Of a DNA stretch of 64,000 nucleotides, positions 34,897-54,531 are shown piece after piece (position 1 is the stretch's first letter; each line of letters starts with the position of its first letter). Below the pieces are notes generated by a model that was given only the letters and a program-made list of their open reading frames with translations, was not told the origin of the DNA and did no database searches. Both the position numbers and the translations under genes were made by a program. Origin of the DNA: Bdellovibrionales bacterium GWA1_52_35 (GTDB taxonomy: Bacteria; Bdellovibrionota; UBA1018); NCBI GenBank assembly GCA_001769805.1, contig MEPO01000011.1, forward strand, positions 41,623-105,622, in the 5' to 3' direction.

Positions 34897-35453
34897 AAAT
34901 CACACCTCTCAAGCCAGTCGGTCTGGCCCTGATTGAACTCTCCCTTTATGGTGACGAGCGCGGATTTTTTGTTGAAAGATTTCATGAAGAGCGCTTCCAT
35001 GATGCCGGACTTTTCGCCCATTTTGTTCAGGACAATCACTCCCGCTCCGCCCCGGGTGTTTTGCGCGGTTTGCATTATCAGGTAAGCCCCCCACAAGGGA
35101 AGCTGGTCGGTGTGGTCCGCGGCGCGATCTGGGATGTTGTGGTGGATATTCGCCCTGAATCACCCACCTTCGGACAGCACTACGGAGTCGAACTCAGTGA
35201 TATGAATGGCCGACTCCTCTGGATTCCTGCCGGTTTTGCCCATGGTTTTTGCGTTCTCGGCGAGAGCCCCGCTGATGTCCTTTATAAAACAGACGGAATT
35301 TATAACGCAAGTACGGAGGGCGGGATTACCTGGAACGATCCCGAGCTGAAACTCCCATGGCCAATTGCCAACCCCATCGTTTCCAAACGAGATCAGGAGC
35401 AACCCTCATTTTCTGAGTACCGCAAGAAGGCGCCGAAATGGGCGCTCCTTTGA
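34893..35453 (+). CDS. rfbC: dTDP-4-dehydrorhamnose 3,5-epimerase
   Basis: Start at the ATG overlapping the rfbD stop. ..DERGFF.E.F.. and ..RGLHYQ.. are present. ..LWIPAGFAHGF.. is the RmlC signature. Confidence 0.9.
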   Translation: MKITPLKPVGLALIELSLYGDERGFFVERFHEERFHDAGLFAHFVQDNHSRSAPGVLRGLHYQVSPPQGKLVGVVRGAIWDVVVDIRPESPTFGQHYGVELSDMNGRLLWIPAGFAHGFCVLGESPADVLYKTDGIYNASTEGGITWNDPELKLPWPIANPIVSKRDQEQPSFSEYRKKAPKWALL

Positions 35454-36808
35454 TCCGGCTTCTTAAGTCGAACCGACCTTTTTTTGCTCTGCTGCTCGGG
35501 ATTACCGTTTTGATCGCGCTCCGGAATCTGCCGGTTTTTCACCAGATCAGCTTCTGGGCGGAAGATGCGGACGAGTTCTTTATTGGTTCTCTGAATCTGG
35601 GGCTGAAAAGTCTGATTACTCCGATTTACGGATATCACTTTCTGCTAGGCCGCACCCTTGCTTACATAATCAGCTTGCTCCCGCTTGCTTGGGCGCCACT
35701 CCTGTATGCAGTGATTGCAATGTTTTTGAACGCATTAGTCCTCAGCTATTTTTCCCGGGAAGGTTTTGCCTGGATTATCGAATCACAGAGGGCGCGAATC
35801 CTCGTTTGTATTTTGCTCGTTTTTGCTCCGGGCTCTCCTGAGGTCTTCCTGAATCTGGTGAACTTGAGTACCCCCTTGGGATTTTTCGCGCTTTTACTGC
35901 TCCTGGAAAAGCCATTCCGTCCAAGCGCTTTGAAGATCGCGTTTTTTGGCCTGCTGGTCCTTTCCTCGGGCCAGGTTTTCCTTTTCACACCTCTGGTTGC
36001 GTATCTCTGGTTCGTCACCCGCCAAAGCCGTTATCTGTATCTACTTGGAATCATTCTGCCGGTCACGGCCATCAATTTCCTGGGTAATCACTCGATCGGG
36101 CAGAAGACAGGACTCCTCAATTACGACCACGTCTTCAGCGCCCCAAAAATAATCTGGGAACAGGGCTTTATTCGGTTTTTCTTTGCGCCTTTGCTGGGTT
36201 CCGGACTGACCGAGCACCTGATGCAAATGCCTGGACTCCTGTTCTGGCCGCTATCGATTGGAATAACCAGCCTGTTTTTCCATACTCTCGTGAAGAAGAC
36301 GATAGCCAGCCGGGAGCAGATGATCACGCTGACATTGGCTTACCTCTGTTGTGCAGCCAGCTTCGGCGTCATCGCTATTACCCGGAGCTATGCCTTCGGT
36401 CAGGTCTCCCGCGAATCGGGCTATGTTGGGTGGGATGGACGCTATGCTTTCCTGACCGGTGCACTCGCACTGGTAATCTGGTCCTCGCTCTTCAGCAAGG
36501 TCGTGAAGAGTCCATTCAGAATGGGCTCTAAAAAAAACCGCTTGGTCCAGGCGGCCTTGCTTCTGATTGTGTTTCATCACTTGGGGCACTTCAATACACG
36601 GAACATGCGCCCCGATCCCGAGTTTGACTTCAAAGCGGCGCAGCTCGAAGCCGCTATTTATACGGTCAAGCAGCGCTCGACAACTTTGACTTTGACGACA
36701 GATCCGTTCCTGGTTGGACCAGAATACTACCACCACAGTCAAATGACGGTCTTGGTCCATCCCGATGGGTCCATTACGTCCACAGGCAAGAATGATCCGC
36801 CGCGTTAA
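35438..36808 (+). CDS. Polytopic membrane protein (456 aa; candidate GT-C-fold glycosyltransferase)
   Basis: About 11 hydrophobic segments, a soluble tail of about 90 aa and a periplasmic-loop WAEDADEFF near TM1. Confidence 0.45.
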   Translation: MGAPLIRLLKSNRPFFALLLGITVLIALRNLPVFHQISFWAEDADEFFIGSLNLGLKSLITPIYGYHFLLGRTLAYIISLLPLAWAPLLYAVIAMFLNALVLSYFSREGFAWIIESQRARILVCILLVFAPGSPEVFLNLVNLSTPLGFFALLLLLEKPFRPSALKIAFFGLLVLSSGQVFLFTPLVAYLWFVTRQSRYLYLLGIILPVTAINFLGNHSIGQKTGLLNYDHVFSAPKIIWEQGFIRFFFAPLLGSGLTEHLMQMPGLLFWPLSIGITSLFFHTLVKKTIASREQMITLTLAYLCCAASFGVIAITRSYAFGQVSRESGYVGWDGRYAFLTGALALVIWSSLFSKVVKSPFRMGSKKNRLVQAALLLIVFHHLGHFNTRNMRPDPEFDFKAAQLEAAIYTVKQRSTTLTLTTDPFLVGPEYYHHSQMTVLVHPDGSITSTGKNDPPR

Positions 36809-36823
36809 ATCACCAATACGGTT

Positions 36824-52788: not shown

Positions 52789-52815
52789 GTAATCTCTCCT
52801 CTGGAAGGTCCGTAG

Positions 52816-54531
52816 ATGAACAATCTGAAAAGCAGTTTAAGACGGCGCTGGATTCAAAGCGACCTAAAAGTCAAATTGCTCAGCATCCTGCTTGGACTGA
52901 TCCCGGTGGGAATTGCGCTTTGGGTCTGGTTATCACCACTGGCTTTTGTTCCGGTGCCCTGGCCTGATGACTCAGCCTTCTATTTCGTCGGACGCGACTT
53001 TTTTCAGTGGCCCCCCCGCTGGGTAATGATTCCTCAAGCTCCGTTTGAACCCTCCTATCGGATTTTCAATTTCAATACGATGCCTCTTTACCCGATTCTG
53101 ATCGGATTGGGTCGCTTCGTTGGAATCGATGGAAGTTTTGGAATTAAATTCTGGCCACTTTGTGCCTGGGCTTTGACGGGCTCCCTCCTTTCTGTTGTGC
53201 TTTTTCGTTCAGGTCTTCCTATTCTCATTTCGGCACTCCTTGGGCTTGCGGTCGGTCTGGATCCGATCCTTCGTTGGGCCTCGGTCCTGGTGCGGCCCGA
53301 ATCTTTGATTGGTCTGATCGGGATGGCGTTGGTCCTGGGTCTGGCTTTAGGTATTCCTGCAAAATTCAGAACCAAAGGACTCTGGGATCCCGTCGCAGCC
53401 CTTCTGGCTTTGGCCGCTTATTCACATTTCAACGCCATTCATCTGCTTTTTCCGGTAATTGTTTTCCATTTCCTGGAACCCCTCCGTCTTTTTGCCATTG
53501 CCTGGCGCACGGCGCTCTACCTGCTACCCTGGCTGGTCCTTGTCCTGTGGCATTGGGGCTTGTTCGTTCATCAGATGACTACCCAGTGGACGCGACTGGC
53601 GGTTGCCAACAATTGGCTCGATTCAATCGCCTCGGCAATCAACGGCCTGCTTCAGAACCTTGGCAGTCCGGAAGCCTGGCCCGCTCAGATTTACTTGCTG
53701 GGAATGGGCCTCTGGCTCCTGATTTTTTGCGCGGCGGTTTTTGCTCTTTGCGATTTGTATCTGGCCTTCTGGAAACCAGAGCGCAGAACAACGCGGCGTC
53801 TCGCTCCAGCAGCAACCTGGGTGCTCAGCTCAGTCTGGCTCTGGCATACCAAGCCTGAAGTCTGGTTCGTCTATTACATCCATATTGCCCTTTGGTGCTT
53901 CGCGGGCCTTGTACTGCTGGAAGCATGGCGAAACCGGAAACAGTTTTTCGGAAAATTCACCTTTGCCGCAGGAGCCCTCCTCCTTGTCACGCTCACCTCC
54001 GTTTCCGGCTATGTCGACGGCGTGCAGTTTATAAAATTGCGCTCGTCTTCTTCCTGGAACAGGGACACCTACCACGAATTCATCAGCTGCATCGATCAGC
54101 GGCTCGAAGAGGAATGGCGGCGCGTTCGTGCAATATTGCCCGACAGAACTTTCACAGTCTGGAACCCGACTTTTCCCGATGTGACGGTCGAGCTTTCACG
54201 CAGACATCCCGACTGGGAGTTCACCCGCACGAACGACTTTTCAGAAAGAAGCCAGTTGGCTTTGCAGCACGGGCGGGACGTGGACGCAGTCGTCGTCTCG
54301 GAAACCCTGCAATGGCAGGAGCGCGACATTTCCGGTCCCCTTGAAGAGCATCCTGAGATCAGTTCCGTCTGGATGAACTGGGGTGGCTATTTTCTGAAGA
54401 CGTTGTGGACCGAAAAAGGATGGAAGCCGGTACGTTATTTATGCCAGAGAGGCCGCTGGCAGGCCTTCATGTTCATGAACGCACCCAGACCAAGGCTCTC
54501 CACTCATTCAGCTCCCGGCGAACAGGAGTAA
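52816..54531 (+). CDS. Polytopic membrane protein (571 aa; candidate GT-C-fold glycosyltransferase)
   Basis: About 12 hydrophobic segments, followed by a soluble domain of about 160 aa. The first loop carries PWPDDSAFYF. Confidence 0.45.
   Translation: MNNLKSSLRRRWIQSDLKVKLLSILLGLIPVGIALWVWLSPLAFVPVPWPDDSAFYFVGRDFFQWPPRWVMIPQAPFEPSYRIFNFNTMPLYPILIGLGRFVGIDGSFGIKFWPLCAWALTGSLLSVVLFRSGLPILISALLGLAVGLDPILRWASVLVRPESLIGLIGMALVLGLALGIPAKFRTKGLWDPVAALLALAAYSHFNAIHLLFPVIVFHFLEPLRLFAIAWRTALYLLPWLVLVLWHWGLFVHQMTTQWTRLAVANNWLDSIASAINGLLQNLGSPEAWPAQIYLLGMGLWLLIFCAAVFALCDLYLAFWKPERRTTRRLAPAATWVLSSVWLWHTKPEVWFVYYIHIALWCFAGLVLLEAWRNRKQFFGKFTFAAGALLLVTLTSVSGYVDGVQFIKLRSSSSWNRDTYHEFISCIDQRLEEEWRRVRAILPDRTFTVWNPTFPDVTVELSRRHPDWEFTRTNDFSERSQLALQHGRDVDAVVVSETLQWQERDISGPLEEHPEISSVWMNWGGYFLKTLWTEKGWKPVRYLCQRGRWQAFMFMNAPRPRLSTHSAPGEQE

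Follow-up and report, generated by a model that had tools for sequence, protein, structure and literature searches.

Polymyxin resistance (ArnT), the cell wall of mycobacteria, and the N- and O-glycosylation of proteins all rely on membrane glycosyltransferases of the GT-C fold. In three-component periplasmic glycosylation systems, a flippase (GtrA), a polyprenyl-phosphate-glucose synthase (GtrB), and a serotype-specific GT-C transferase (GtrC) decorate O-antigens of the Wzx/Wzy type (PMC11127046), and in Francisella, FlmF1 and FlmF2 together with FlmK place mannose and galactosamine on lipid A (PMC2233673). GT-C families are so divergent that new ones are founded singly, as was GT136 in 2024 (PMC11127046). 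Here, we describe a stretch of 64,000 nucleotides (the window) of contig MEPO01000011.1 from Bdellovibrionales bacterium GWA1_52_35, in which seven large multispanning membrane proteins are encoded between positions 35438 and 54531; genes are named by their first position in the window. We conclude, with a probability of roughly three in four, that this region is an island of genes for lipid-donor-dependent glycosylation in the periplasm of a Bdellovibrionota-like diderm. Its glycosylation system would be of a known kind, here exceptionally dense and composed of unclassified enzymes. The folds of three of the membrane proteins, the homology of the protein encoded at 48661 to GtrB and ArnC, and the synteny of the region were computed and are presented below.

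An earlier note on this DNA had counted eight large membrane proteins between 35438 and 54531. The open reading frames (ORFs) that it listed were found at their positions, and eight genes there indeed encode products of 456 to 635 amino acids (aa), but only seven of these products (35438, 40845, 42396, 44309, 46029, 50881, and 52816) are polytopic. Each of the seven has 10 to 13 hydrophobic segments followed by a nonhydrophobic C-terminal part of about 70 to 180 aa (Kyte-Doolittle peak picking), in agreement with the multispanning architecture and soluble terminal domain that had been proposed, and in the AlphaFold2 (AF2) secondary structure of 42396 and 52816, about 13 long helices precede an alpha/beta domain. 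The three further proteins of this kind that had been placed in the O-antigen-like block 1 of the window (7282, 10578, and 12754) are likewise polytopic, with 9 to 14 segments, so that there are seven polytopic candidates within 19 kb and ten within 55 kb. A few percent of the proteins of a genome reach 450 aa and have at least 10 transmembrane (TM) segments; on this rough basis, seven of them in 13 adjacent genes far exceed the genome-wide expectation, which we read as functional clustering and not as a statistical anomaly. All-against-all BLASTP identified 42396 and 50881 as paralogs (55% identity over 622 residues) and returned no other significant pair. This indicated that the cluster is not a recent tandem family but a set of unrelated or extremely diverged proteins.

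The features expected of GT-C enzymes were found in the seven proteins to differing degrees. A polytopic core of about 8 to 13 or more TM helices with a cytoplasmic N terminus is present, and the N termini of 35438 and 40845 are basic, with acidic first loops. An acidic motif lies directly after the first core TM helix in 10 of the 10 polytopic proteins of the window, the three of block 1 included; within four family alignments (the family of 42396 and 50881, termed family A, and the families of 52816, 35438, and 40845), its residues are either invariant or conserved to at least 90%, and in 44309 and 46029 it was read from single sequences. The libraries searched were Pfam (2025), NCBIfam (2026), and the PDB sequences. 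No named GT-C family of Pfam (PMT PF02366, PMT_2 PF13231, GT87 PF09594, Glyco_transf_22 PF03901, STT3, Arabinose_trans, and others) reached its gathering score, and 35438, 42396, 50881, and 52816 matched no Pfam family at E values of up to 10. The unassigned proteins gave only subthreshold NCBIfam matches at E values of up to 1 (40845 and 10578), and PDB sequence and profile searches returned nothing meaningful for family A, for the 52816, 35438, and 40845 families, or for 10578, 12754, and 46029. The suggestion that several of these proteins may belong to uncharacterized families was borne out, since for five of the seven, neither Pfam nor NCBIfam nor the PDB sequences yielded a match.

Structure prediction, in contrast to these sequence searches, placed three of the seven proteins among GT-C enzymes. 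Family A is represented twice in the window, by a predicted GT-C-fold glycosyltransferase of 634 aa with a Cys-rich C-terminal periplasmic domain (42396 to 44300, plus strand) and by a second predicted copy of 635 aa (50881 to 52788, minus strand; member P0003 of the family A alignment, A1). Family B is represented by a predicted GT-C-fold glycosyltransferase of 571 aa that is encoded divergently from prmA (52816 to 54531, plus strand). None of the 56 homolog clusters of family A carries a Pfam domain or a functional name, and all 170 homologs of 52816 are unnamed. In a 52-sequence alignment of family A, D52 is nearly invariant (at least 90%) within a GYxED motif just after TM1, and R156, H157, H170, D179, and E197 are invariant; eight invariant Cys residues lie within the last 150 residues, in the C-terminal domain, which fits a periplasmic location. 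In the 52816 family, the sequence PWPDDSAFYF after TM1, including D51 and D52, is invariant. The AF2 model of 42396 was very confident (predicted local distance difference test [pLDDT] score, 93.2; predicted template modeling score [pTM], 0.92), and its top 20 Foldseek matches were all GT-C proteins, including AftA (TM-score, 0.49); STT3B was the best structural match of family A, with AftA and AftD also among the top ones. The model of 52816 (pLDDT, 90.2) had Pmt4 and Pmt2 as its best structural matches. The predicted structures therefore show three-dimensional similarity to solved GT-C enzymes. A transporter or acyltransferase identity, which the earlier note had held up as the outcome that would speak against a GT-C reading, was not what emerged: three proteins resolved as GT-C folds by structure prediction and Foldseek, and MFS, RND, or other transporter folds were rejected for the modeled proteins (Foldseek probability of at most 0.13). 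We have high confidence, on the strength of the models, that 42396, 50881, and 52816 are GT-C-fold transferases of the lipid-donor type from families that no database names.

To place these proteins in a comparative context, one genome per species was scanned with the family A alignment, and 33 loci (referred to below by L numbers) were returned. Twenty-three of them lie in Bdellovibrionota, at 39 to 53% identity; the remainder, at 23 to 38% identity, belong to Acidobacteriota (Thermoanaerobaculaceae and Holophagae), Polyangia, Emticicia, and Desulfobacteraceae, and no species-representative genome exceeded 53%. The protein encoded at 42396 is found in identical form, with the same neighbors, on groundwater metagenome contigs of up to about 157 kb from the Rifle aquifer (PRJNA268031), and named homologs of the membrane proteins of the region come almost only from metagenome-assembled genomes of Bdellovibrionota, Oligoflexia, and Bacteriovoracia, which makes an uncultured bacterium of this phylum the most likely host. 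A recurrent gene order was evident, namely, rne, prmA, the 52816 family, a GT2 gene of the 49767 family, a GtrB-like gene, and family A, after which a gene of the 40845 family stands in some loci. Among the Bdellovibrionota loci, a distance of at most 10 kb separated family A from the 52816 family in 10 and from a GtrB-like gene in 11, and prmA was adjacent in 6 loci. Homologs of 49767 with 42 to 49% identity are flanked by genes of the 52816 family and GtrB-like genes in L006, L017, and L021, and one adjoins a 42396-family gene in L013; the 42396 family is adjoined by the 40845 family in L005, L018, and L021 and by a 35438 homolog in L025. In the relatives, two to four large polytopic ORFs typically lie no more than 20 kb from family A, and the majority have no Pfam match. 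The window is an enlarged version of this lineage-wide core: it has two copies of family A and has gained a DUF2079 pair as well as rml, C-methyltransferase, and dehydratase genes. In some relatives (L010 and L020), a DegT aminotransferase or a short-chain dehydrogenase/reductase (SDR) gene stands beside the GtrB-like gene; the carried sugar thus probably differs among lineages.

Two further features of the family A loci were recorded. Another polytopic family of about 450 aa, absent from the window, adjoins family A in four metagenome-assembled Bdellovibrionota genomes (L009, 184 to 1593; L020, 8042 to 9439; L022, 2463 to 3815; and L027, 1156 to 2424); its members are 28 to 33% identical to each other, and those of L009 and L020, which were scanned, had no Pfam match. 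Distant relatives of family A from Acidobacteriota, namely, from Thermoanaerobaculaceae, Thermoanaerobaculia, and a metagenome-assembled Acidobacteriota genome (L028, L030, L034, L036, and L037), lie in much longer raw ORFs of 657 to 1,246 aa, as though the Cys-rich and GT-C modules had been fused to extra domains.

A lipid-linked donor requires a synthase, and the earlier note had counted four lipid-phosphate sugar synthases. Three of these stood up well (48661, 5617, and 8954), while the fourth, 49767, had no detectable relationship to solved enzymes of this kind. The gene at 48661 to 49674 (minus strand) encodes a putative polyprenyl-phosphate glycosyltransferase of the GtrB/ArnC/PgfS type, with a GT2 domain and two C-terminal TM helices. 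It matched Synechocystis GtrB (5EKP) with an E value of 7e-75 (residues 15 to 320 against 22 to 327) and ArnC with an E value of 9e-43 (phmmer, both over the full length), and it has an acidic DDD motif (in IIDDDLEDPPE) and C-terminal TM segments (residues 246 to 264 and 282 to 300), as expected of GtrB/ArnC/DPMS-type enzymes. Its NCBIfam PgfS score of 244 bits is under the equivalog cutoff of 500, which indicates that it is not an exact PgfS ortholog. As judged by homology, 48661 would make a polyprenyl-phosphate sugar. A second putative synthase of the same type is encoded in block 1 (5617 to 6579, plus strand; 36% identical to 48661 over the full length; NCBIfam PgfS, 233 bits), as is a candidate AglJ-like polyprenyl-phosphate hexose synthase with two C-terminal TM helices (8954 to 9886, plus strand; NCBIfam AglJ TIGR04182, 230 bits over the full length, cutoff of 325). 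The product of 49767 (49767 to 50891, plus strand), which is part of the core module, is a GT2 protein with two C-terminal TM helices (Pfam Glycos_transf_2 and Glyco_transf_21); NCBIfam gave only weak matches of the PgaC/TuaG type, and the architecture is compatible with a lipid-phosphate sugar synthase. The gene at 39359 to 40855 (plus strand) encodes a soluble fusion of 498 aa in which a GT2 domain of the DPM1/PpgS kind is joined to an S-adenosylmethionine-dependent methyltransferase (Pfam Glycos_transf_2 and Methyltransf_11/25). Its GT2 half is weakly PpgS/DPM1-like (NCBIfam PpgS, E value of 3e-11) and is possibly a second lipid-phosphate sugar synthase of the cluster; the fusion has no TM or hydrophobic segment, and its treatment as a membrane protein was rejected. 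This fusion is one gene in three assemblies and is split (280 aa plus 247 aa) in the ANAN16-1 scaffold (L002, 6906 to 8460), either because the strains differ here or because of a frameshift in the assembly. A polyprenyl-phosphate- or polyprenyl-diphosphate-linked sugar as the donor of the GT-C proteins is suggested circumstantially, by the GtrB/ArnC homolog that is encoded among them.

The other four membrane proteins of the cluster fall into three groups. The gene at 35438 to 36808 (plus strand) encodes a polytopic protein of 456 aa with about 11 segments, a GT-C-like candidate of an unassigned family. This family is large, with 1,200 relatives at E values of up to 1e-3 among 1.84 billion cluster representatives, and it is unnamed: 68 members scanned singly against Pfam and NCBIfam matched no family except for a TPR fusion in one member, no PDB match was obtained, and the cluster names of ten relatives were all "hypothetical protein" or absent. 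In its acidic first loop, which follows the basic N terminus, the residues E42 and D43 of FWAEDG reach a conservation of at least 90%. The family of 40845 (40845 to 42323, minus strand; 492 aa, about 11 segments) is, in contrast, rare, with 2 clusters in a word-indexed homolog search, 3 genome loci, and 6 metagenome loci. Its D35 and E36 are invariant within a GDExxYxxIxEE motif after TM1, which we take to resemble the ArnT/PMT_2 signature, and four invariant Cys residues lie in its C-terminal part; weak colinear matches were obtained to Agl23 (TIGR03663; E value of 0.004) and to an Alg9-like family (PF03901; E value of 0.44, 10 bits versus a cutoff of 23.8). By topology and motif, 40845 is a probable GT-C protein and 35438 a candidate one. 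The third group is a DUF2079 (PF09852) pair with 13 segments each, 44309 (44309 to 46102, minus strand; E value of 1.5e-11, 44.5 bits) and 46029 (46029 to 47681, plus strand; 550 aa; E value of 1.6e-25, 90.6 bits), both above the gathering cutoff of 28.2; the public gene call for 44309 is 542 aa long (44309 to 45937, L001). DUF2079 is presumably a member of Pfam's GT-C clan, and the pair would be of the GT-C type by its family match. The term "DUF2079" occurred in no paper by full-text search, and one paper lists PF09852 among families of unknown function, without assigning one. The proposal that all seven proteins are GT-C transferases thus held by predicted fold for 42396, 50881, and 52816 and by Pfam family for 44309 and 46029, and 35438 and 40845 follow by topology and motif only. 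The three proteins of block 1 also matched no named GT-C family: 7282 (7282 to 8952, plus strand; 9 segments) has a WWGVDDHE motif after its first TM segment and no Pfam or NCBIfam match; 10578 (10578 to 12470, minus strand; 14 segments, SWDALAYH motif) is weakly LIC_10190-family-like (NCBIfam NF047510, E value of 6e-9, 35 bits versus a cutoff of 100) and has no PDB match; and 12754 (12754 to 14391, plus strand; 10 segments, YRDYWDIYPPG motif) has no Pfam, NCBIfam, or PDB match.

In the scheme that we propose, activated sugars would be made in the cytoplasm by RmlABCD, a C-methyltransferase, and the dehydratases or epimerases encoded at 38407 and 47685, and 48661 would then place single sugars on undecaprenyl phosphate, as 49767 and the GT2 half of 39359 may also do; both of these steps are modeled on homology. 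The lipid-linked sugars would then cross the membrane with the help of a flippase, for which the window offers no obvious candidate, and very divergent periplasmic GT-C transferases (42396, 50881, 52816, the DUF2079 pair, and probably 40845 and 35438) would each glycosylate one defined site of an envelope acceptor. These last two steps follow the behavior of all characterized GT-C enzymes; the flipping, the donor type, the sugar identities, the acceptors, and the GT-C status of 35438, 40845, 44309, and 46029 are what we infer in this scheme. The acceptor would most likely be lipopolysaccharide (LPS), in its O-antigen, core, or lipid A part, or a different surface glycan, with proteins less likely. 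The O-antigen-type gene surroundings favor LPS or a polysaccharide, and the conserved position of the core module next to housekeeping genes points to an acceptor that is itself conserved, for example, lipid A, core, or a protein. In the lipid A of Bdellovibrio bacteriovorus, alpha-mannoses replace both phosphates, and to our knowledge no enzyme has been assigned to this mannose step; a search of the literature on GT-C enzymes in Bdellovibrio found nothing relevant. We considered the possibility that the core module (the 42396 and 52816 types, a GtrB/ArnC-like synthase, and a GT2 protein, beside prmA and rne) is the machinery that puts neutral sugars on the lipid A of Bdellovibrionota, a specific assignment that we regard as highly doubtful. 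If it were true, there would be two new lipid A glycosyltransferase families analogous to ArnT and FlmK, and the extra GT-C genes of the window would be lineage-specific decorators of the core or O-antigen.

Several points weigh against the reading of the region as a periplasmic glycosylation island. The fold evidence comes from predicted, not experimental, structures, and these cover 42396 and 52816; the GT-C status of 35438 and 40845 rests on topology and motif, and that of 44309 and 46029 rests on Pfam. No homology signal connects 35438 to any named family, and 49767 has no PDB sequence match at E values of up to 1e-3 that would link it to solved lipid-phosphate sugar synthases. The window has no GtrA/SMR-type flippase, and no ORF of 80 to 200 aa with at least three hydrophobic segments was found outside the annotated genes anywhere in it. 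Comparisons by hhalign among alignments A1, A2, and A3 gave probabilities of <1%, no better than those for reversed alignments, and this was also the case between the two families whose fold is established, so that the silence says nothing against 35438; a colinear alignment of FWAEDG with PWPDDS, which scored no better than its reversed controls, was dropped as evidence. Finally, the acceptor cannot be read from the sequence, and the structures do not discriminate among acceptors, since similarity is equal to enzymes that act on proteins (PMT and STT3), on lipid A (ArnT), and on polysaccharide (Aft enzymes). One alternative is that the conserved core glycosylates periplasmic or outer-membrane proteins by O- or N-glycosylation of the PMT, PglB, or Pgf kind. 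PgfS is the lipid-sugar synthase of the streptococcal Pgf protein-glycosylation system, in which the PgfE epimerase is its neighbor. Consistent with such a role, 48661 scores best against PgfS and is adjoined by the epimerase 47685, the enzymes that family A (STT3B) and 52816 (Pmt4 and Pmt2) match best in structure act on proteins, and the position beside housekeeping genes is conserved; given the equal similarity to enzymes with other acceptors and the O-antigen-type surroundings, we consider protein glycosylation unlikely.

Some of the less well supported membrane proteins (35438 above all, and 40845, 44309, and 46029) might instead be a flippase of the lipid-linked sugar, a polymerase or ligase of the Wzy/WaaL type, or another membrane enzyme. 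The role of a flippase is vacant, as the window lacks a GtrA-type gene, and 35438 has a short C-terminal tail (about 70 aa), no named family among its 68 scanned members, and several highly conserved Arg residues in its family, one of them invariant. Set against this are its conserved E-D pair in an acidic first periplasmic loop of about 45 residues after a basic N terminus, a GT-C signature that is not expected of MOP flippases; the failure of the Pfam Wzx and Wzy models, which find the true Wzx and Wzy of the window, to find 35438; and the C-terminal TPR fusion in one family member. Such C-terminal TPR fusions occur in PMT_2/TMTC-type GT-C proteins. A nontransferase role for members of this group consequently appears improbable. 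The earlier note had also likened the region to mycobacterial assembly of lipomannan (LM), lipoarabinomannan (LAM), and arabinogalactan, and de novo synthesis of a polymer in the periplasm from lipid-monophosphate sugars, in the style of LM/LAM or arabinan, would account for the 7 to 10 GT-C candidates, several lipid-phosphate sugar synthases, and the phosphomannomutase (PMM) gene, as well as for AftA and AftD among the top structural matches of family A. This analogy found no support in the sequences, which include no DprE or PRPP-type genes or other genes of the decaprenyl-phospho-arabinose (DPA) pathway and no match to the Emb/Aft, GT87, or PimE families. Moreover, unlike the members of a paralogous elongation series, the families show no relationship to each other, the complete Wzx/Wzy/WecA-type pathway in the window can supply a backbone, and several GT-C decorators acting on Wzx/Wzy products are well precedented (PMC11127046); polymer synthesis of this kind therefore strikes us as very unlikely. 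Nor is lipid-donor glycosylation unexpected beside a Wzx/Wzy locus, as had been supposed: an incompatibility of Wzx/Wzy with lipid-phosphate donors was rejected as contradicted by Gtr-type systems, in which GtrB and a GT-C enzyme classically decorate Wzx/Wzy O-antigens (PMC11127046). Decoration of an envelope acceptor by lipid-donor-dependent GT-C enzymes remains our preferred reading.

Pfam annotation of all ORFs of at least 150 aa divided the window into four parts. Block 1 (1 to 22 kb; G+C content, 42 to 47%) is an O-antigen-like locus with DegT, GT2s, two Wzy_C genes (2783 and 18134), Wzx (MOP; 4159), methyltransferases, a WecA-like phosphoglycosyltransferase (14437), Gmd, and an epimerase, together with the three unassigned polytopic proteins. 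The classic Wzx/Wzy locus described in the earlier note is thus in place, as are the PMM gene (25630) and the absence of an ABC exporter: no ABC-transporter domain was found in any of these ORFs, and Wzx is the sole flippase-type gene of the window. The G+C content of positions 1 to 20000 is 42 to 47%, versus 50 to 56% in positions 20000 to 64000, and the low G+C content of block 1 suggests a horizontally exchanged or hypervariable serotype locus. Unrelated genes (SET, histidine kinase, PMM, DUF4143 ATPase, FecR, ADH, and HNH) occupy 22 to 32 kb. Among them, a SET-domain protein of 192 aa (22584 to 23162, plus strand) lies between the two glycan blocks and overlaps the beginning of a histidine kinase of 803 aa, and five paralogs of the AAA_14/DUF4143 ATPase gene (27090 to 28229, minus strand) stand in a row in an Oligoflexia locus (L007, 13796 to 21803), downstream of its family A gene.

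Block 2 (31.9 to 54.5 kb; G+C content, 50 to 53%) holds the GT-C candidate cluster. It begins with rmlB, rmlA, rmlD, and rmlC of the dTDP-L-rhamnose pathway (31940 to 35453, plus strand; Pfam GDP_Man_Dehyd/Epimerase, NTP_transferase, RmlD_sub_bind, and dTDP_sugar_isom), which lie directly upstream of 35438 and overlap its start. Between 35438 and the C-methyltransferase gene is an 83-aa N-terminal remnant of an NAD-dependent epimerase (36860 to 37111, plus strand; Epimerase/GDP_Man_Dehyd matches; a called gene in L001, 4465 to 4716), which looks decayed and hints at a former rearrangement of the cluster. There follow an NDP-hexose C-methyltransferase-like gene (37153 to 38403, plus strand; Methyltransf_14 with an E value of 3e-56, Methyltransf_13, and Methyltransf_23) and a GDP-mannose 4,6-dehydratase-like SDR gene (38407 to 39369, plus strand; GDP_Man_Dehyd with an E value of 2e-67; NCBIfam gmd, 192 bits, below the cutoff). 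The NAD-dependent sugar-nucleotide epimerase/dehydratase gene at 47685 to 48701 (minus strand; Pfam Epimerase/GDP_Man_Dehyd) had NCBIfam matches to dTDP-glucose dehydratase, LegB, and GalE, all under the respective cutoffs. Downstream of block 2 are prmA, rne, deoC, and nucleoside-salvage genes. The RNase E/G homolog is 1,014 aa long (55460 to 58504, minus strand), with its catalytic domain starting at residue 400 after a long N-terminal extension, and its homologs in L018, L019, and L024 are raw ORFs of 940 to 1,283 aa.

Three aspects of this locus are new. As judged by the models, current family libraries miss two or more GT-C-fold families, and there may be several others (up to four or five further candidates); a pair of GT-C families is conserved across the phylum together with a lipid-sugar synthase; and seven GT-C candidates are packed into 19 kb, with ten in 55 kb, so that dense GT-C clusters are not confined to actinobacteria. 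The region offers a testable entry into the envelope glycobiology of Bdellovibrionota, an under-studied predatory phylum whose envelope matters for prey recognition, self-protection, and unusually low endotoxicity.

Of the known systems, the mycobacterial GT-C enzymes (AftA, AftB, AftD, EmbA to EmbC, and PimE) differ from those of the window, which belong to none of their sequence families, are not accompanied by DPA-pathway genes, and are encoded in a diderm with an O-antigen-type locus and no sign of polymer elongation. With PMT (GT39) and the oligosaccharyltransferase (OST) subunits STT3, PglB, and AglB, they share 7 to 13% sequence identity in structural alignments; they lack MIR domains and OST peripheral-domain motifs, and family A has instead a Cys-rich alpha/beta domain with eight invariant Cys residues. 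DUF2079 accommodates 44309 and 46029, which exceed its gathering threshold, but the family itself has no characterized member. The ArnC/ArnT and FlmF1/FlmF2-FlmK systems follow the same logic as the one proposed here; however, no similarity to ArnT/PMT_2 was detected in the window proteins (no Pfam match at E values of up to 10), the window contains no equivalents of ArnA, ArnD, ArnE, or ArnF, and two separate GT-C families, unlike the case for ArnT or FlmK, are conserved together in this lineage. Compared with Gtr-type systems, the window has no GtrA/SMR flippase gene, encodes seven GT-C candidates rather than one, has GT-C proteins outside any named sequence family, and has a chromosomal core conserved beside prmA and rne, whereas Gtr systems are phage-borne or serotype specific. 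Nevertheless, like Gtr-type and GT136 pentofuranose systems (PMC11127046), it clusters a GtrB homolog (48661) with GT-C-fold enzymes beside Wzx/Wzy/WecA genes, and as in Gtr-type systems, addition of sugars in the periplasm after polymerization would be expected.

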